DNA of 64,000 nucleotides from Eledone cirrhosa (lineage: Eukaryota). The position numbers were made by a program, and so were the translations under genes. Positions 1-54,557 of the stretch are shown in pieces. The notes beneath the pieces are model-generated. The model was given only the letters and a program-made list of their open reading frames with translations. It ran no database searches and was not told the origin of the DNA. How positions within the stretch are numbered: position 1 is the first letter of the stretch; every line of letters begins with the position of its first letter. Location of the stretch: the NCBI GenBank assembly GCA_964016885.1, contig OZ024740.1, positions 197,346,001-197,410,000 of the forward strand. Reading direction: 5' to 3'.

Positions 1-1090
1 AGAAAATGAAGGGACGCAGCTCCGAACTCACATTTGCTGGGGTTGATAACAATTCCGTATTCACGCAAACGTGTGAATAGGAGATCCAGGTGTTTCTCAT
101 GTTCTTCATCGGAGCTGCTGGCCACCAGTAAGTCGTCAATGTATGCGTATACAAAAGGTAGACCTCTGGTGACTGTATCGATGAATCGCTGGAATGTCTG
201 CGCTGCATTTCGCAAACCGAAAAGCATACGCAGAAATTCGAACATTCGAAAGGGTGTTGTGACGGCGGTCTTAGGAATATCTGCAGGCTCAACGGGTATC
301 TGATTGTAAGCTCGCACAAGATCGATCTTCGAAAATATGCGAGCACCGTGTAGCGAGCTAGAGAAGTCCTGTAGATGAGGCACTGGATAAGAGTCAGGAA
401 CGGTGCAGTTGTTCAGTGCACGGTAGTCGCCACAGATTCGCCAGTCGTTCGACGACTTCTTGGGTACACAGTGTATGGGTGAGGACCAGTTGCTGCTGGG
501 CGGACGTATGATGCCGAGATCCAGCATGTGCTGAAATTTTTGTTTGACGGACTTCAGCCGGTCTGGTGGTAGCCTTCTAGGTCGTGCAGCGACAGGTGGG
601 CCGTGTGTTTTTATGTGGTGTGTGACATCATGTTTTACAGGGCAAGCGTTGAATAGTGGTCGAGCTACGTCTGGGTATTTGTTGATGATGTGGTTGTGCC
701 AAGTTGTTGTCGATCGTGAAATGACTGGACTGACTGTGGCTGTCCTAACGGCTATGCCGCACACAGCGAGACCAGTGGAGTTGTCAACGAGTCGTTGGTT
801 TTTCAGGTCCACTAGCAGTGAGAAGTGCTGAAGAAAGTCAGCTCCTAAAATAGGGGTCGGCAGCTTAGCCACAACGAATACCCACTGGAAAGTGCGGCGT
901 AGTCCCAAATTTAGTGTCAGGGACTGTTCTCCGTAGGTCGGAATATGTGAGTGATTCACCGCCTGGAGCCAGGCTGGTGTCTCTCTCCTTTTTCCAGGAA
1001 CGCAGGAAACCGGGATGATGCTGACTTCAGCACCGGTGTGGACCAGGAAACGCGTGTCTGTGACGCGATCCTGAATGAAAAATAGGCGAC
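1..1090 (-). pseudogene. Gypsy pol fragment: aspartic protease and reverse transcriptase
   Basis: Reverse complement translates to [25 protein letters not shown] (protease, DTG changed to HTG), [38 protein letters not shown] and [11 protein letters not shown]. Confidence 0.9.
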
Positions 1091-1149
1091 TTTGGTTATG
1101 AGGGCCAGAAACGTCCGTCGCATTCAGTTTCTGGCTGTGTCGTTTCCCT

Positions 1150-1773
1150 GATTCGTTTTCGAAACAAATGAACAGGGATGGCTGCACTTTTGCGCTCGTC
1201 TCCCGAATCTTTGGTGGTTCCAACACATTTCTGGTTAATCCCGAGATGCGCTCGGAATTCTTGAGCGACCACCAAATCGGCAAGTTCTTCTATGGTGGTG
1301 GACTCCCTGGTGGATGCTAGTACAACTTGTGTGGCAGAAGGCAAACGCTGGAGGAAGTGTTGCTTGAAAATTTCATCCGGGAGTTTATGTTCGCCCAGAA
1401 GCTGCTTCATTCGCCGTAGGAGTTGCGTCGGCTTTTTATCTCCTAATTCCTCCGATATGAGGAGCTGGTGTAAACGCTTCTGCTATGACTCCGACGTCCG
1501 CTTAACTAATGTTCTTTTAAATGTGTCATATGACGCAGAGCCGGGTGGTGCTAAAATGAGGCCTCGAACCTCATTCATAATCTCCGGAGACATCAAACCG
1601 ATGACATGTGTGAGACGGGATGCCTCACTAACGATCCGGTTCGATGCGAACTGCGCTTCGATGTGCGCGAACCACAGTGTTGGATCGTGCACCCAGAATG
1701 GTGGAATCCTTAATGTAAATGCCGCCCTGACTGCCATTTCTGCCGCTGATGAATCGTCGTGTGCTAGAGACAT
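1150..1773 (-). pseudogene. Gypsy gag with an in-frame stop and a frameshift/deletion
   Basis: RIPPFWVHDPTLWFAHIEAQF..., in-frame TAG at 1483-1485, then [32 protein letters not shown] zinc-knuckle-like [18 protein letters not shown] follows in another frame. Confidence 0.85.
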
Positions 1774-1787
1774 CGTTTGTAGTGGAT

Positions 1788-1824
1788 GATCAGAAGGTTG
1801 TGTGTCTGTTTTACGGGGTCACCA
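1788..1824 (-). promoter_or_regulatory. Primer binding site for tRNA-Trp, bipartite
   Basis: Plus strand reads GATCAGAAGGTTGTGTGT(ctgtttta)CGGGGTCACCA. Metazoan tRNA-Trp 3' half as recalled: GATCAGAAGGTTGCGTGT(tcaaatcacgt)CGGGGTCACCA. Confidence 0.8.
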
Positions 1825-1879
1825 GTTGTAACGGAATATTATGTGTGTTTGTAACGATAAGTGGATGGATGGATGTAAC

Positions 1880-2235
1880 TGTAGCGGTTGTCTCCCTTGT
1901 TTGGATTAACATCTAGACGGGAAGTAGAACCCTTTCTGTAACTTCCGGTCAGAACCCTATAAAACTAACAACTTTAAGTTCTCACCCTCTCATTGCCCTC
2001 TTTTCGGCACCAGGCCAAGAGCCTCTCATTTGGCCTTCCGGCGCCTGGCCTTAGCCAGGCGTCCTCTGCCAGCCGCGTTTGCCTGGCAATCAAAACGGTA
2101 ACGACTAACTTTGTTTCATTCTATAATCTATTTCTTTGACATGTCAACTATACTATCTACCATTGTTAATTAAATATTATACACACAAACAATGTATTCC
2201 TTGTTACATTCATGCAACCCAGTACTCTCGCTATA
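1880..2235 (+). repeat. 5' LTR of the nested element
   Basis: TGTAGCG...CGCTATA termini. Near-identical to 3743-4098 (two differences seen). Confidence 0.92.
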
Positions 2236-2236
2236 T

Positions 2237-2268
2237 TGGTAACCCTGACGTGATACGAACACGCAGCC
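2237..2268 (+). promoter_or_regulatory. Extended tRNA-Trp primer binding site
   Basis: TGGTAACCCTGACGTGATACGAACACGCAGCC is the reverse complement of the last 32 nt of tRNA-Trp (as recalled) with 3 mismatches. Confidence 0.8.
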
Positions 2269-3142
2269 GTTCATCGCTATAAGTGGTCACCCCCAAAAAA
2301 GAAAAAGATAGCAGATCCGGTATTGTGTGAGTAACATTACGAATACACAGCAAATTTATTGACAAACTATGAAAATACTCAAAGAAACGGACACACGCAC
2401 ATGTGGAATTCGCGTTCAGACAGACTTTTTCTCTCACGCATCAACTAACTGTCGCATTTCACGATATATATTCTCGTTTCTTACAACGAACACTTTCAAA
2501 ACAAAAAAAAAATAAAAAACATTTCACGATATATATATGTTTCTCGTTTCTTACAACGAACTCTTTCAAAACAAAAAAAAAAAAGAAATTTGATATTCTT
2601 TAAAAAACATTTCAACAGGAACATTTATTTTCGATGAACCATTGCCTTTTTTTTTCATCGTTTTCTTCATCGTTCAAGTTTTTTTTCCAAAGTTCACACC
2701 AATAATTATGCAAGCCTTTCTTTTTCATCATTGTCACTTTCACACTTGCACTATCATTTTCTCGCACGTTAGAAATATTATTTTTTCAACCTTGTATTGG
2801 CACGTGTAGGCAGCAGAAATTCTCGACTCACAGAGATATCTCGACTCACAGAGATAGCCGCACGCCAGAGTAACGTTTCTCGCCAAGGATTCTTCAGCCT
2901 TAAGCTATATTCTCCTATTTGCCGGTTTAAAAATTTACTACGTAAATTTGCCGTTGAAAACTGCGCATTTATTCAGAATGCTTATTTCTTTGGTCGCTGG
3001 CCTCTTGACCCTTCCAGGTCAACGCATTCTCAACATCGACCATCAACTTCGGCTGCTATTTCTAGCACTTTGCGCAACTCATTTTTTCTGAAAAATTTTT
3101 TTTTACTGTGAATTTAAACACCGAATACGCTCACTCAGCGAG

Positions 3143-3350
3143 ACAACAGCAGCAGCAACAGCAACAGCAATATAACAGCAGCAGCAACAGCAATATAACA
3201 GCAACAGCAATACAGCAGCAACACCAACAGCAATATAACAGCAACAGCAACAGCAATATAACAGCAACAGCAATACAGCAGCAACGGCAATACGGCAGCA
3301 GCAGCAGCAACAGCAACAGCAATACATCAACACAGCTTCACCAACAACCA
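3143..3350. repeat. Compound (CAG/CAA)n microsatellite with a ~60-bp higher-order duplication
   Basis: cagcaacagcaatataacagca units; explains the polyQ, polyC and polyL ORFs here. Confidence 0.9.
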
Positions 3351-3742
3351 AAGCCAGAGAATTTATTTTTGCAGCACTCTTCCTGTGAGAAAATCCATTC
3401 GGAGGTTGGACATTTCACGATATACCACAGAACAGAAACCACCTGCATTCATTCTCTGGAACACACTTTCTTTCCTGCTGTCATGTGATTGCACACCTGT
3501 GAACTATATTTTGTACATTTGAACTTTGAGCCTTCTCTTACTTTATTACATTGTATCTTTGGGTGATGGATAGATAGATGTCCAGTCGTTCTCTGGCCAA
3601 GAGCGGTTGGCTACCTTGATATCTATCATTGATTTTTGCAAACATTCTTTTGTCGTAATTTTCATGCCTGTTACAACATTCTCGCCAACTTGCTACATAT
3701 TTTTATTCGATTTTTATATCCTAAAATTCTGGCGGGAGGTTG

Positions 3743-4098
3743 TATAGCGGTTGTCTCCCTTGTTTGGATTAACATCTAGACGGGAAGTAGAACCCTTTCT
3801 GTAACTTCCGGTCAGAACCCTATAAAACTAACAACTTTAAGTTCTCACCCTCTCATTGCCCTCTTTTCGGCACCAGGCCAAGAGCCTCTCATTTGGCCTT
3901 CCGGCGCCTGGCCTTAGCCAGGCGTCCTCTGCCAGCCGCGTTTGCCTGGCAATCAAAATGGTAACGACTAACTTTGTTTCATTCTATAATCTATTTCTTT
4001 GACATGTCAACTATACTATCTACCATTGTTAATTAAATATTATACACACAAACAATGTATTCCTTGTTACATTCATGCAACCCAGTACTCTCGCTATA
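3743..4098 (+). repeat. 3' LTR of the nested element
   Basis: TATAGCG...CGCTATA; direct repeat of 1880-2235. Confidence 0.92.
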
Positions 4099-4786
4099 TA
4101 ACTGTTGGTATGGTGGTTTCGATGTAAAGAAAAATACCAGGTTTGTGTTGTTACAAAGTTTATTTTATTATAACAATATTCAATTTGAATATTGAATGAT
4201 AAAATCAATAACACAAAATATTCATACAATAATTTGGTGGCTCTTCGAGCCATGTAAATTCAAGTATCACAGAATACGATTATAATATAATTTGTACTGT
4301 ATCAGAAGGGTACAATATGTGTAAACAGAAATGGTGCGTGTATAAATACTGAACTCACTATGAATGCATGTGTGCGTATCAGTATATTTACTTGTTTGTA
4401 TTGCAGGAGTCAGCGATCAGCCAAGAAGGTGAGAATAAGTGGCGGACTGGTTTTTCGTGACGAGAGCTTGTAAATGCGACTTGTCTTGTCTGTATATCAC
4501 TTCTTTTCTGTCGGGGCGTAAACAACCCCTGTATTTATAAGAGTTAAAGTTAGAAGGATAGATATATCCTCTGAACTTTGGTTAGTCTCTCCCAAGGTAT
4601 TAGTTTGCCAAGCGTAAACAAGTCAGAAAGATGGATATATCCTCTGACCTATTTTCTGTCAGGCGTAAACACCTCTGACCTGTGTTTAGCCTCTCCCAAT
4701 GGGTTAGTCTCTTGAGCGTAAACAAGTTACCACGGCTTGTCCCAGAGGCGGGAAAGCTCAGATTCGGTTTCGAATCTTCGCTGCCG

Positions 4787-12540: not shown

Positions 12541-13081
12541 TCCCCATCTCCACTTATGTAATAGTGCTGCTACTATAAAATGTATCCAGTACACACTGTA
12601 ATGTAGTTAGCATTGAGGTGGGCATCTAGCCATAGAAATCATGCCAAAATGGAACAAATGAGCAAGACAAGATCATCTGACACATTTACTCTTAGAATGT
12701 GAAAATCTGTACAACCCATGTCAACATGGAAAAAAAAGACATAAAATGGTAATAATAGTGATAATAAATTTGAAAGACAGTTTTTATTAAAAATAGAGTA
12801 GTAAGTAATCTCACCAATGTAGATATAGTTGAGGTTACATAAAATATAATGCTGGGAGAATATAAAAATGTTATATCATTTTTCCTGTGTTAATATATTT
12901 AAGGTTATAGATATTTTTTCACAAAAAACAAATTTTGACATCAGTAAACTTACTCTCTTGTATTAATACACACATGTAGTTAAGTGACAAAATAAGTTAC
13001 CAGTGGTTCTCTCGTATATACCAATGTATTTCTCCTATATTTATAAGTAGTTAAATGATCTGTTTTAAATAATGATTTATG

Positions 13082-13954
13082 TCAGCAAACAGTGATACAG
13101 CTCCTCTTCATGATATGATTTTTTTCATGTATAGTTAAACCACTTCTTTTAGTGTATGATTTACCGCATATATCACAATGATATGGTTTCTCTCTTGTAT
13201 GAACGAGTTTGTGTTTAGTTAGGTCACTATTTTGAGAGAATGTTTTACCACAAATATCACAGTTATGTGGTTTCTCTCCTGTGTGAATATATTTGTGAAT
13301 AGTTAAATGACTTGTTTGAGAGAATGATCTATCACATATATCACACTGATAAGGCTTCTCTCCTGTATGACTATACTTGTGTGTAGTTAAGTGACATGTT
13401 TGAGAGAAAGCTATACCACAGATATCACAGCGATAGGGCTTCTCTCCTGTATGGATGCGGTAATGTCTAGTTAGGTTATTTTTCTTAGAGAATGATTTAC
13501 CACAGATATCACATCGATAGGGCTTCTCTCCTGTATGGATGCGGTAATGTCCAGTTAGGTTATTTTTCTTAGGGAAAGCTATACCACAGATATCACAGCG
13601 ATAGGGTTTCTCACCTGTATGGATGCGATGATGCTTTGTTAGGTGACTTTTATCAGAAAATGATTTACCACAGATATCGCAGTGATATGGTTTTTCTCCC
13701 GTATGAATATATTTGTGAGTAGTCAAGCTACTTCTTCTAGCGAATGATTTACCACAGATATCACAGTGATGTGACTTCTCCCCTACATGAATGTGTTTGT
13801 GAGTAATTAAGAGATTATTTTGAGTGAATGATTTACCACAGATATCACAGTGATGTGAAGTTTTTACTTTCTTTTCCATTATCTCACCAGGAAAATCAAT
13901 CCTTTTGGATTGTGTTGTACATTTAACCGGGTTCTCACATAATTCATTTTCCAT
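13082..13954 (-). CDS. C2H2 zinc finger protein, 9 tandem fingers (ZNF-1)
   Basis: Intact 290-aa ORF; CxxC-x12-HxxxH repeats with TGEKP linkers; short N-terminal leader with no recognisable effector domain. Confidence 0.93.
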   Translation of the reverse strand: MENELCENPVKCTTQSKRIDFPGEIMEKKVKTSHHCDICGKSFTQNNLLITHKHIHVGEKSHHCDICGKSFARRSSLTTHKYIHTGEKPYHCDICGKSFSDKSHLTKHHRIHTGEKPYRCDICGIAFPKKNNLTGHYRIHTGEKPYRCDICGKSFSKKNNLTRHYRIHTGEKPYRCDICGIAFSQTCHLTTHKYSHTGEKPYQCDICDRSFSQTSHLTIHKYIHTGEKPHNCDICGKTFSQNSDLTKHKLVHTREKPYHCDICGKSYTKRSGLTIHEKNHIMKRSCITVC

Positions 13955-14444
13955 AATTTTTCTTCTTTCATCAAAATATATTTCTCTTTTTCATATATTT
14001 TATTCCCAATAAATATTTCTACTGTGATCTTTGTTGATATCTGAGGCAGGTTGTTATCTCCTTTGCAAATTTTTCTAAGTTTAATTAGAATGTAAAATCA
14101 TCTTGTACATATTCCATATAATAAACAAAAATGTTGCTATTAATCTCAGTTCAGAAGAAATGTTTCAAAATAATTTTACCATATATTATATCTGTTGCAT
14201 ATAAAATCTTTTAGTCTTTCAAAATAATAAACAATGATGTATCTCAGGTAAAAAACAATTTTGTTGTGTCAACATCATCTGATATCCTGAAATAATAGAG
14301 AAATAGTAAAAATAAAAAGTTAACTGAAAGTTTGGCTTCATTTCTATATTGATAGATTGTAGATATAACATTTAATATGAACATTTGAAGTTTAACTTTC
14401 AATTTATCAAAATAACATACAACCTTGTGTGAAGTAAGCTACAC

Positions 14445-25803: not shown

Positions 25804-25839
25804 TTAAGCATGTTCTGTTTTTACATATAGCAGGGTTAG

Positions 25840-26805
25840 TCAACTTACTATTGCGTGATTTACCATAGATATCATCATGATATGATTTTTTTCATGTTTA
25901 GTTAAGCCACTTCTTTCAGAGAATGATTTACCACATATATCACAATGATATGGTTTCTCTCTTGTATGAACACGTTTGTGTTTAGTTAGGTCACTATTTT
26001 GAGAGAATGTTTTACCACAAATATCACAGTTATATGGTTTCCCTCCTGTGTGAATATATTTGTGAATAGTTAAATGACTTGTTTGAGAGAATGATCTATC
26101 ACACATATCACACTGATATGGCTTCTCTCCTGTATGACTATACTTGTGTGTAGTTAAGTGACCTGTTTGAGAGAAAGCTATACCACAGATATCACAGCGA
26201 TATGGTTTCTCTCCTGTATGGATGCGATGATGCTTTGTTAGGTGACTTTTTTTAGAAAATGATTTACCACAGATATCACAGTGAAATGGTTTCTCTCCTG
26301 TATGAATGCGTTTGTGAGTAGTTACGTCACAACTCCGAAGAAAATGTTTACCACAAATTTCACAAGGATATGACTTCTCTTCAGTATGAATACGTTTGTG
26401 AGCAGTTAAGACATCACTTCGAGAGAATGATTTACCACAGATATCACAGTTATATGGCTTCTCTCCAGTATGAATACGTTTGTGAACACTTAATGCCTTA
26501 TTTCGAGAGAATGATTTACCACAGATATCACAGTGATAAGACTTATCTCTTGTATGAATACATTTGTGTTTAGTTAAGGCATCTCTTGCAAAGAATGATT
26601 TACCACAAATATCACAATCATATGGCTCCTCTCTTGTATGAATGCGTTTGTGAGCAGTTAAAACATTATTTCGAGAGAATGATTTGCCACAGATATCACA
26701 GTGATGTGATGTTTTTTGTTTCTTTTCTATTATCTTGCCAGGTAAATCAATCCCTTGGGATTGTGTTGCACATTTAACTGGGTTCTCACATAATTCATTT
26801 TCCAT
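25840..26805 (-). CDS. C2H2 zinc finger protein, 10 fingers (ZNF-2)
   Basis: Intact 321-aa ORF with tandem C2H2 fingers and TGEKP linkers. Confidence 0.93.
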
Positions 26806-26946
26806 AATTTTTCTTTTTTATCACAATATATTTCTCTTTTTTATATATTTTATTCCTAACAAATATTTCTACTGTTGAATTTCCATAAACATTAATGATG
26901 AATCTCAGGTAAAGAATATTCTGTAAAGTCAACATCATCTGATATT

Positions 26947-40090: not shown

Positions 40091-40664
40091 TAAAAAAATG
40101 AATAAATAAATAGATAAGTAAAACCAGGGGGTATTCTAAGAGATTGTTACCTTAAGTTTAAAGAGTTACATATATGCGATAGATTCAATATATTCACTTT
40201 GAAATAAATGAATGTTTGCGATACAAAATGTTTTCAATTACAGAGTGATTACATTACTGGTCCTGAATTTTATCAAGTGGCTAAGGCTTCTAATTCTGTG
40301 AAATACAAAAGTAAGTAGGGATTGACCTCTCAGTCACACCTGTCTATAAATAGATTCAGGTTATTTCAAGAGGGAGATGGGGTGGTGTCATGTGTTGTCT
40401 CTTCTTGTAAAGCTAGTGCCAGTTCCTCGACATTTTTGTTTTAGTTTGTTTTTGAAAAATTGTGAGTGCAAGTTAAGGAGGAATGTGTAAAAAATGCATA
40501 TGCATTAATGAACATATATTTTACTTTAAACACAAAGGGACATCTGTAAATGATAGTAACGATATTTAGATATTGGTCTCATCATTCTTTTTATTTCCTT
40601 CTGTAGCAACACGTGGTTGTGTTTGGCTGCTGACTCTAGCAGAGCCCCCAAATAATGATTTACC

Positions 40665-41702
40665 TCAGCTAACAGTGATACAGCTTCTCTTCATGATATG
40701 ATTTTTTTCATGTTTAGTTAAGTTACTTTTTTGAGAGAATGATTTACCGCATATATCACAATGATATGGTTTCTCTCTTGTATGAACGCGTTTGTGTTTA
40801 GTTAGGTCATTCTTTTGTGAGAATGTTTTACCACAAATATCACAGTTATATGGTTTCTCTCCTGTGTGAATATATTTGTGAATAGTTAAATGACTTGTTT
40901 GAGAGAATGATCTATTACATATATCACAGTGATACGGCTTCTCTCCTGTATGACTATACTTATGTGTAGTTAAGTGACATATTTGAGAGAAAGCTATACC
41001 ACAGATATCACAGCAATAGGGCTTCTCCCCTGTATGGATGCGATGATGCTTTGTTAGCTCATTTTTCTTAGAGAATGGCTTATCACAGATATCACAGTGA
41101 TAAAGTTTCTCTCCTGTATGAATGCGTTTGTGAGTATTTAAGTCAGAACTCCAAGAGAAATTTTTACCACAAATATCACAGGGATATGAATTTTCTTCTG
41201 TATGAATACGTTTGTGAGCAGTTAAGCCATCATTTCGAGAGAATGATTTACCACAGATAGGACACTGATATGGTTTCTCTCCTGTATGAATGTACTTATG
41301 AGTAGCTAATACATTACTTCGAGAGAATGATTTACCACAGATATTACAATGATATGGCTTCTCTCCTGTATGAATACGTTTGTGAGCAGTTAGATTATTT
41401 TGTGAGAATGATTTACCACAGATATCACAATGAAATGGCTTCTCTCCAGTATGAATAGGTTTGTGTTTAGTTAAGTTACCTCTCGCAGAGAATGATTTAC
41501 CACAAATATGACAGTGATATGGTTTTTCTCCTGCATGAATGCGTTTGTGAATAGTTAAAACATAATTTCGAGAGAATGATTTACCACAGATATCACAGTG
41601 AATTGATGTTTTTTGTTTCTTTTCTATTATCTTGCCAGGTAAATCAATACTTTTGGATTGTGTTGTATATTTAACCAGGTTCTCACATAATTCATTTTCC
41701 AT
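40665..41702 (-). CDS. C2H2 zinc finger protein, 11 fingers (ZNF-3)
   Basis: Intact 345-aa ORF; finger 3 is one residue short ([11 protein letters not shown]). Confidence 0.93.
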
Positions 41703-41832
41703 AATTTTTCTTCTTTTACCACAATTTTTTATATACTCTATTCCTAAAAAATATTTCTAGTTGAATTTCTATAAAGATTAATGGTGTATCTCAGGTAAAG
41801 AATATTCTGTAATGCCAACATCATCTGATATT

Positions 41833-51500: not shown

Positions 51501-51850
51501 AAGACAGTTTTTATTAAAAATATCACAGTAGTAAGTAATCTCACCAATGTAGATATAGTTGAGGTTAGATAAAATATAGTGCTGGGAAGTTATCAAAACG
51601 TTATATCATTTTTCCTGTGTGAATATATTTAAGGTTATAGTTGATATTTTTTCTAAAAAAACAAATTTTGACATCAATAAAGTTACTCTCTTGTATTAAT
51701 ATATACATGTAGTTAAGTGACATTTTTGAGAAAATAATTTACCAGTGGTTCGCTCCTATATAAATACATTTGGAGGTAGTTAAATGACCTGTTTTAAACA
51801 ATGATTTACTTCAGCTAACAATTTTATAGCTTCTCTTCTGCAGTGGTTAG

Positions 51851-53395
51851 TCAACTTACTACTGCGTGATTTACCATAGATATCATCATGATATGATTTT
51901 TTTCATGTTTAGTTAAGCCACTTCTTTCAGAGAATGATTTACCACATATATCACAATGATATGGTTTCTCTCTTGTATGAACTCGTTTGTGTTTAGTTAG
52001 GTCACTATTTTGAGAGAATGTTTTACCACAAATATCACAGTCATATGGTTTTTCTCCTGTGTGAATATATTTGTGAATAGTTAAATGACTTGTTTGAGAG
52101 AATGATCTATCACACATATCACAATGATATGGCTTCTCTCCTGTATGACTATACTTGTGTGTAGTTAAGTGACCTGTTTGAGAGAAAGCTATACCACAGA
52201 TATCACAGCGATAGGGTTTCTCACCTGTATGGATGCGATGATGCTTTGTTAGGTGACTTTTATCAGAAAATGATTTACTACAGATATCGCAGTGATATGG
52301 TTTTTCTCCCGTATGAATATATTTGTGAGTAGTCAAGCTACTTCTTCCAGCGAATGATTTACCACAGATATCACAGTGATGTGGCTTCTCTCCTGTATGG
52401 ATACGTACATGAGAGGTTAAGTAACTTAATCCAGAGAATGATTTACCACAAACATCACAGACATATAGTTGTTCTCCTGTATGAATACATCTGTTGTGTA
52501 TAAGCAACTGACTTGTTTGAGAGAATGATTTACCACAAATATCACACTTATATGGTTTTTCTCCTGTATGAATACGCTTGTGTTTAGTTAAGTGATTTCC
52601 TACAGAGAATGATTTACCACAGATTTCACAGTGATATGGTTTCTCTCCTGTATGAATACGTACATGTTTAGTTAAGTGACTCTTATCTGCGAATGATTTA
52701 CCACAGATATCACAGAGATATGGCTTCTCTCCTGTATGACTATACTTGTGAGTAGTTAAGTGAACTCTCTGAAAGAATGATTTACCACAGACATCACAAT
52801 GAAATGGCTTTTCTCCCGTATGAATACGTTTATGTTTAGTTAAGTTGCCTCTTTCTGTGAATAATTTACCACAAACATCACAGTGATATGGCTTCTCTCC
52901 AGTATGAATACGTTTGTGAGTAGCTAATTCACTTGTTCGGGAAAATAATTTACCACAGATACCACAATGGTATGGCTTCTCTCCTGTATGAATACGTTTG
53001 TGAGCAGTTAAGACATTATTTCGTGAGAATAATTTACCACAGATATCACAGTGATATGGCTTCTCTCCAGTATGAATACGTTTGTGTTTAGTTAAGGTAC
53101 CTCCTTCAGAGAATGATTTATCACAGATAGCACAGTGATATGGTTTCTCTCCTGTATGAATTCGTTTGTGAGTATTTACTTCACATGTCCGAGAGAAATT
53201 TTTACCACAAATATCACAGTGATATGGCTTCTCTCCTGTATGAATGCGTTTGTGAGCAGTTAAGACATTATTTCGAGAGAATGATTTACCACAGATATCA
53301 CAGTGATGTGATGTTTTTCGTTTCTTTTCCATTATCTCATCAGAAATATCAATCCTTTCAGCTTTAACTGGGTTTTCAAAAAATTCACTTTCCAT
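51851..53395 (-). CDS. C2H2 zinc finger protein, 17 fingers (ZNF-4)
   Basis: Intact 514-aa ORF with tandem C2H2 fingers. Confidence 0.94.
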
Positions 53396-54557
53396 GACTT
53401 TTCTTCTTTTACCACAATATATTTCTCTTCTTTTTTATATATTTTATTCCCCTTCTGTTAAATTTCCATTAACTGTGATTTTTGTTGATATCTGATGTGG
53501 GCTGCAATCTCCTTTGCAAACTTGTCCAAGTTCAATTAGAATGCATATTGTACATATTCCATACAATAAAATAAAATTTGGCTATTAATCTCAATTTAGA
53601 GAAAATATTTCGCAGTAATATTACACAATCTGATAAATAGTGTTATATCTCTTCTGTATAAAATCTTCTTTTAGTCTTTAAAAATAATAAACATTAATGA
53701 TGTATCTCAGGTAAAAACAATTCTGTTGTGTCAATGTCTTCTGATATTCTGAAATAATAGAGAAACAGTATAAGATAAAGAGGATACTTAAAAAATAAAA
53801 AAGTTAACAGTGAAACTTTGGCTACTTTTCTGTAATGGTAGATTTGAAGTTTAATTTTTAATTTATCAAAATAACATCATACAACTTTGTGCAGAATAAC
53901 ATATAACCTTGTGTGAAGTCTTACAAACTACAGCTACACCTTCAGATTGTGTAATATATATTAAACTACAGCTACACCTTCATATTATGTAATATATGTG
54001 ACACTACAGCTACATCTTCAGATTGTGTAACATTAAACTACAGAATGGTGGACAATAACATTATTCTTTTTCGGAAACATCATTTCTTGATGTTGTTTAC
54101 AAATGAAAATCAAATAAAATTTACAGCTCACACCTAATGCAAGTTTAGTGGCTCCTATGAAATTACATCTCTGTGATAGTTTCTTTAATATTTTAATGAT
54201 AAGGCTCCTACAGCTCTGACTGAGCAAACCTATAACCCAAGCCAGGTTGTTTTCAGCTATGCTACAAAATTTATGATAGATCAAACACAAAGAAACTTAT
54301 TGATGAATGAAGAAAAGACTGAATGGGAACAACATTAACCAAACCTAGCTGGTATAAACCTAACTTAAGTGAATAACAAAGGTTGAATTGGTATAAAGTT
54401 GTGACTGGTCACTGACTGGATTAATATTACATTTGATGGAAATTCAGTTGAAATATCTGGGGAAAATATTACAATTCTGAGAAATTGTTTTCAAAGTTTA
54501 TATTTGAAAATTGATAAAATGGAAATAAATTAATATAAAAATGATTTATAGAAGGCA

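Follow-up and report, generated by a model that had tools for sequence, protein, structure and literature searches.

The window, a 64,000-nt stretch of the Eledone cirrhosa genome (GCA_964016885.1, contig OZ024740.1, positions 197,346,001 to 197,410,000), contains close to its start a 2219-bp LTR element (1880-4098), here called the focal element, that inserted beside the LTR end of a neighbouring, broken gypsy element. The features of both are as follows, in window coordinates (PBS, primer-binding site; RT, reverse transcriptase).

3..1773, reverse strand: disrupted frames for gag, protease and RT, belonging to the neighbouring gypsy element (PF23055, PF00077, PF00078)
1788..1805, reverse strand: second block of the neighbouring gypsy element's split PBS, antisense to tRNA positions 37-54 (16/18), 8 nt past the first
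1814..1824, reverse strand: PBS of the neighbouring gag-pol Ty3/gypsy element, 11 nt, tRNA-Trp
1876..1879, forward strand: left target-site duplication, TAAC, 4 bp
1880..2235, forward strand: 5′ LTR, 356 bp, 2 differences from the 3′ LTR
2236..3742, forward strand: internal region, non-coding, longest stop-free frame 140 aa
2237..2254, forward strand: PBS positions 1-18, complementary to tRNA-Trp 59-76 (CCA included) except at 2241 and 2246
2255, forward strand: A opposite tRNA A58, likely a misincorporation at a putative m1A58
2256..2268, forward strand: PBS extension, complementary to tRNA 45-57 (T loop, T-stem 5′ strand, variable loop), 13/13
2269..2283, forward strand: copy of the final ~15 nt of the parent family's LTR, likely the re-landing site of an over-long plus strand
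2284..2295, forward strand: relic of the parent's 12-nt PBS, decayed here and in most derived copies, intact in basal copies
2340..2351, forward strand: decayed second block antisense to tRNA 46-57; in this copy 35/100 shuffles reach its score
3731..3739, forward strand: polypurine tract (PPT)
3743..4098, forward strand: 3′ LTR
4099..4102, forward strand: right target-site duplication, TAAC, 4 bp

With two LTRs, a PBS, a PPT and a target duplication and no coding capacity, the focal element belongs to the non-autonomous LTR retrotransposons. Its PBS-to-PPT distance in 32 other focal copies is 1230-1494 nt, and its non-coding internal region includes a CAG/CAA-rich repeat tract (3144-3350). It is not a TRIM, whose definition as given in PMC10886601 sets a length of <1000 bp, nor is it a Helenus element, as its tRNA-derived part is antisense and outside the LTR rather than tRNA-like sequence within the LTR. 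No tRNA gene was found in the 64-kb window, and no tRNA match across 1700-4300. The locus is rearranged: a 291-nt exact direct repeat of window positions 1592-1882 lies just to the left of the window, and an inverted second focal copy (L305, 77-86% identical) lies ~2.5-4.9 kb to its left. Elsewhere, the window holds a cluster of 84-bp tandem-repeat exons (13044-13990, 25811-26817, 40627-41756, and 51822-53434), of which the one scanned is a C2H2 zinc-finger array; 84-bp repeats occur in other places too.

Host tRNA-Trp(CCA) genes were located by pattern and confirmed by ARAGORN, and the PBS was aligned to their antisense, such that the tRNA position equals 77 minus the PBS position and PBS position 19 falls opposite A58. 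The original prediction described an 18-nt match to tRNA-Trp with two transitions, an A at 2255, and then 13 further matched nucleotides; the host genes bear out each of these. The PBS begins one base past the 5′ LTR end and matches the 3′ end of host tRNA-Trp over 32 nt (2237-2268), with mismatches at positions 5 (2241, G>A), 10 (2246, C>T), and 19 (2255, A where the host gene predicts T). Positions 20 to 32 (2256-2268) match at 13/13, a continuation whose exact occurrence by chance has a probability of ~1.5e-8. The extended match, whose failure against host tRNAs the prediction had named as evidence against it, holds. The end of the match is slightly ambiguous (after one extra G comes TTC, making 32-35 nt possible).

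A58 is present in 65/66 near-intact host tRNA-Trp gene copies, and neither C58 nor G58 occurs among these 66. None of the 66 has both of the letters seen at PBS positions 5 and 10, and a host isodecoder was therefore rejected as their source. The prediction had expected A58 in the host and had named a T58 gene as evidence against it: the expectation holds for nearly all copies, but T58 does exist in two degenerate copies, both classed as tRNA-Trp by ARAGORN, out of at least 67 gene-like ones; neither of the two matches the PBS exactly. One (L303) has 4 mismatches to the intact gene and C20, the same position-20 letter as the focal family, and differs from the extension at position 28; the other (L304) has 3 mismatches and T20, the letter of the other isodecoder, and differs from the extension at position 20. 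The four mismatches of L303 (489-562; G000:C4 near 277.43 Mb, in a tandem cluster) fall at tRNA positions 58, 49, 37, and 32; two named sites among four mismatches have a chance of 0.002 per copy, which coincidence or conversion by cDNA of a modified tRNA could explain. Tandem tRNA-Trp gene arrays lie at G000:C4 353.39-353.49 Mb and 277.40-277.44 Mb, with most genes carrying A57, not G57.

Searching the genome with PBS positions 4-32 at ≤3 mismatches yields 689 matches (a count that takes in some tRNA genes and other families), versus 0 for a reversed-pattern control. A stricter exact pattern returns 479 focal copies, and we put the family at ~500 or more. Among the first 100 of the 479, position 19 reads A 97 times, G three times, and T never, while positions 5/10 are A5/T10 in 78, carry both tRNA letters in 11, and are G5/T10 in 10 and A5/C10 in 1. 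Genome-wide, 37 sites have a non-A at position 19 with positions 11-32 exact; flanks were inspected for 36 (the remaining one is a gene copy), and these 36 include five focal copies with G and no focal copy with T or C. The base at PBS position 19 across copies, a check that the prediction itself had proposed, therefore comes out in its favor: T occurs in no focal copy inspected, whether in the first 100 of 479 or at the 36 non-A sites. Examined for selection, positions 20-32 show no apparent common variant, where ~3 changes would be expected on the trunk (a hand sum from the tree; P about 0.05, in a sample chosen for matching). Five focal copies (L077, L080, L214, L216, and L218) have a tandem duplication of a 46-47-nt unit comprising the long PBS plus LTR end.

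The focal family arose within a parent family that carries a 12-nt PBS. The pattern of LTR end plus 12-nt PBS has 87 matches, at least 3 of them focal; of the 20 retrieved, 19 are the same element without the insert, sharing LTR and internal sequence, and 1 is focal. What the insert adds to the parent is the tRNA copy, followed by a second copy, 15 nt long, of the LTR end. In a tree built from flanks only, with the PBS excluded (91 focal and 19 parent rows), all 91 focal rows form one clade (support 100, stem 0.038 changes per site) nested among the parents, with two parent-type rows inside it. In basal focal copies, positions 5 and 10 are of the tRNA type, the second PBS is largely preserved, and A19 is already present (G in one). 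A separate event in the same parent family (L249) has a 26-nt extension with T19 from the other isodecoder and a similar LTR-end duplication. More broadly, among 33 sporadic over-extension rows, four came down again on their own LTR end, duplicating 9 nt or more, and the others join downstream sequence. A read-through origin of the extension, as originally proposed, is well supported by the 12-nt-PBS parent, the LTR-end duplicate at the junction, and dozens of separate over-extensions of varied length. The LTR-end duplicate, the relic second PBS, and the split-PBS block described below formed no part of the original prediction.

Positions 1-18 and position 19 have different histories within the family. 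Over 77 derived rows (a sample enriched by design for tRNA-type copies), the tRNA-type and mismatched states require 24 changes on the tree, versus 25.2 ± 2.3 with shuffled labels, indicating that the PBS is repeatedly overwritten from the primer. Yet focal copies with tRNA-type letters at positions 5 and 10 show T19 in 0/55 (53 A, 2 G), although under recopying roughly two-thirds of them would be expected to have T. A19 is accordingly inherited, recopying of the extension in every cycle is rejected, and routine copying likely ends at position 18, i.e., at an m1A58 stop, the extension being passed on as ordinary internal sequence. The tRNA letters at positions 5 and 10 are found in only 11-21% of focal copies, not about half; by analogy with other systems, this low share could reflect a dead-end tRNA copy like that of Ty1/Ty3 or selection for mismatches that escape silencing by tRNA fragments.

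Over-extension is not confined to this family. A search with antisense positions 1-37 at ≤3 mismatches gives 52 sites in all; removing 10 tRNA genes and merging one fold-back pair leaves 41 separate events spread over many LTR families, with tRNA copies of 24-52 nt among the over-extension products as a whole. In this set, which required a reach to about position 37, ends gather at 38-40 (21/41), and no event extends past 52. A letter other than T stands at position 19 in 7/41 (4 A, 2 G, and 1 C), and transversions there amount to 6/41, against 9/1312 at the other positions within 1-33 (p = 2e-6); with the window-gypsy family left out, the same test gives 4/35 versus 8/1120 (p = 3e-4). At position 40, opposite G37, a transversion occurs in 3/7 events that read well past it; vertebrate tRNA-Trp carries m1G37.

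A second event set, unfiltered on position 19, combines the first 100 of 143 matches from one search with all 17 of another, after removal of the focal family and one fixed coding family, merging of one duplicate, and dropping of six T rows from biased searches. Its 31 events have 20 T, 5 A, 4 G, and 2 C at position 19 (non-T in 11/31); two sites (L253 and L258) share a junction and are possibly one lineage. G or C accounts for 6/31 despite the lack of any C58 or G58 gene (p = 2e-4, with the background rate and the 31-event set being differently filtered, overlapping samples). The two isodecoders differ in their share of non-T at position 19 (4/20 versus 7/11, p = 0.02). Together, the errors at positions 19 and 40 form a pattern that fits read-through of putative m1A58 and m1G37. 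The proposal that A19 records m1A58 is likely on this showing: position 19 is a mismatch hot spot over separate events, from which we infer the modification itself.

Several over-extension sites stand out individually. In one (L156), a head-to-head LTR-PBS palindrome folds back at the tRNA anticodon stem and has A19 on both arms. In one family (L093 and L104), the extension has A19 and apparently breaks off after 22 nt, beyond which come another LTR end and a short PBS; a stop at 22 corresponds to the second stop described for HIV-1, with a match too short for certainty. At another site (L059), the extension jumps over a five-base stretch that spans the position opposite G37, with short repeats on either side. 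A coding gypsy family (L221 to L223) has a fixed 32-nt PBS extension with T19 in 24/24 copies, which shows that a PBS can be long in the absence of the error. An origin of the focal element from this family was rejected because 3/3 copies lack BLASTN similarity to it, and the coding family is on the same ground a separate event. Its PBS position 30 is matched only by rare host gene copies, and one copy (L107) has an extra G at position 19.

The extension would also alter how the primer is held. Computed duplex energies for unmodified RNA are -24.1 kcal/mol for the parent 12 nt, -28.0 for window positions 1-18, and -56.1 for window positions 1-32, with computed net binding to the folded tRNA of -16.1, -17.0, and -32.3, respectively. 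The predicted lengthening of the primer grip is thus seen in computed binding energy (-32.3 versus -17.0 net) and holds at that level. A19 would be neutral for priming, since m1A, as described in PMC13191261, cannot pair.

The parent family itself has a split PBS: a block complementary to tRNA 46-57 or 46-59 is found 37-100 nt downstream in 17/19 copies (≤3/100 shuffles reach its score), and this block is decayed in the other 2/19 parents and in focal copies. At the site opposite 58, the parent block has T or A, with A in the subfamily closest to the focal family, showing that this site can change by other routes. The window-gypsy family (L261 to L290) is similarly arranged: 29/30 retrieved copies have a split PBS, for the most part made up of 11 nt, an ~8-nt spacer, and a block complementary to tRNA 37-54 (the retrieval search required part of the second block, and one copy has a deletion), and 1/30 has a continuous tRNA copy. 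Across six continuous tRNA copies in this family, position 19 is T in 4 and A in 2, a mixture as expected if separate read-throughs land on the second block. A second T-arm block appears in only 2/21 other 18-nt PBSs, so the split PBS is not general.

We consider it probable that the 32-nt PBS is an inherited copy of the 3′ end of primer tRNA-Trp, likely made once when RT ran past the plus-strand stop, likely misreading a methylated A58, and then spread to ~500 or more copies by a non-coding LTR family. The starting point is the parent family with its 12-nt PBS. Plus-strand strong-stop synthesis would then have passed position 58, with A put in at that point, and come to a halt close to the foot of the anticodon stem. 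The junction has ~15 nt of LTR and the old PBS in duplicate, which may have come about when the 3′ end, left unpaired, found a new annealing site within the end of the LTR. Subsequently the old PBS decayed, and positions 5 and 10 of the new PBS flip to tRNA letters across the tree, with position 19 never T. A19 may have been cost-free because m1A58 cannot pair, and the extension would pair with the freed T-arm strand and may offset the two PBS mismatches. Counter-evidence comes from the read-through events themselves, most of which (20/31) carry the correct T19.

Could the A have been copied faithfully? The extension might derive from a rare T58-encoded tRNA-Trp variant that, free of the m1A58 block, would be read through every time. 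A U58 tRNA, lacking the block, could be over-represented among read-throughs, making it a real rival for A, which accounts for 5/11 non-T events, and both T58 copies bear on it, L303 having the family's position-20 letter. But L303 is off at position 28 and L304 at position 20, such copies number only 2 among at least 67, and a T58 variant does not account for the G or C events. Both are likely to be poorly expressed, as A58 falls in the Pol III B box. We regard this explanation as improbable. We think it no less doubtful that a faithful T19 read-through acquired its A later, either by a founder point mutation tolerated opposite m1A58 or by borrowing from the parent downstream block, in which this site can be either T or A. 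T is indeed the commonest read-through outcome, but the sampled basal copies are all A or G at position 19, and on so short a stem branch (0.038) the likelihood ratio of misincorporation to later point mutation is about 13-25; moreover, extension position 24 has the tRNA's letter and not the block's.

The tandem tRNA-Trp gene arrays of this genome might suggest a tRNA gene piece, or a tRNA-derived SINE, inserted by DNA recombination and involving no reverse transcription of a mature tRNA. This is very improbable: the insert copies start with the complement of CCA, which is absent from the gene copies examined, they sit exactly past LTR ends in many families with varied end points and errors at 58 and 37, and their junctions have no flanking DNA of tRNA genes. 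An over-extended plus-strand strong-stop product is what the insert resembles throughout: it copies a mature tRNA including CCA, runs past position 58, and is joined to the element.

Should the preferred reading, read-through of a methylated A58, be right, genome assemblies hold in vivo evidence of m1A58 as a routine plus-strand stop for Ty3/gypsy RT, a stop that is described as long debated for retroviruses (PMC8599865), and also record the consequences when it fails. Modification sites would become inferable for species that lack tRNA-seq, and an error product called a dead end in HIV-1 is shown to be capable of integrating, of being amplified, and of reshaping a PBS. Somewhat more speculatively, in a proposal whose odds we put slightly below even, LTR insertions may form a dated archive of host germline tRNA modifications (m1A58, m1G37, and a block near 26) readable from an assembly alone, and the same accident may be a route to new working primer contacts, with over-copies turning into PBSs, long or split, whose pairing includes the T arm and on which later over-copies would land. 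The chemistry of m1A and m1G read-through is already known; what appears new, relative to the literature searched, is that it leaves a statistical trace in a genome and that its product was amplified into a family. We found no description of such genomic fossils in literature titles and abstract openings, which is weak evidence of absence given that most subscription journals lie outside that coverage.

Known systems resemble this one in part. The CsRn1 clade of Ty3/gypsy is characterized by a tRNA-Trp PBS and a 4-bp target duplication (PMC2582038); the focal element shares the former, with the 4-bp duplication seen in the window copy only. A CHCC-spaced motif, a feature of CsRn1 Gag, is visible by eye in a copy of the coding family (L223), whereas the focal element is non-coding and lacks Gag and RT. 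Ty1 and Ty3 have a bipartite PBS, and HIV-1 a PAS, in which a short PBS is joined by a second block pairing with the T arm (PMC5371799, PMC3681743, PMC13191261). The parent family and the window gypsy element have a like layout, of putative function, which also recalls the lentiviral primer over-extension sequence. In Ty1/Ty3, the tRNA copy is described as a dead end that is not inherited (PMC5371799), whereas here it is inherited in a minority of copies.

In the mouse ETn, MusD, and IAP elements, two mismatches mark the most frequent PBS form, and perfect copies turn up at dispersed places on the tree, which has been read as reversion by primer copying and possibly as escape from silencing by tRNA fragments (PMC7472051). 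The mismatches given there are not at modified positions; the focal mismatch at position 19 is, and lies in the extension beyond position 18. In tRNA-seq, m1A58, m1G37, and m2,2G26 are marked by stops and mixed mismatches at 58, 37, and near 26 (PMC5066629, PMC8062790), and the m1A signature depends on neighbouring sequence (PMC8062790, PMC5066629). The errors described here occur at the same sites and also differ between isodecoders, but they were written in vivo by retrotransposon RT, are fixed in the germline, and are small in number.

The closest comparison is with HIV-1, in which copying is reported to halt normally before m1A58, with minor products reaching 54-55 or position 37, and in which complementarity just past the PBS, the lentiviral primer over-extension sequence, can rescue over-extended products (PMC13191261, PMC8599865). 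That rescue sequence reaches only to ~54, and products extending past it are described as unusable for transfer (PMC13191261, PMC8599865). Here, by contrast, products of 24-52 nt were integrated via microhomology, misread bases included, and one of them founded a family of hundreds.
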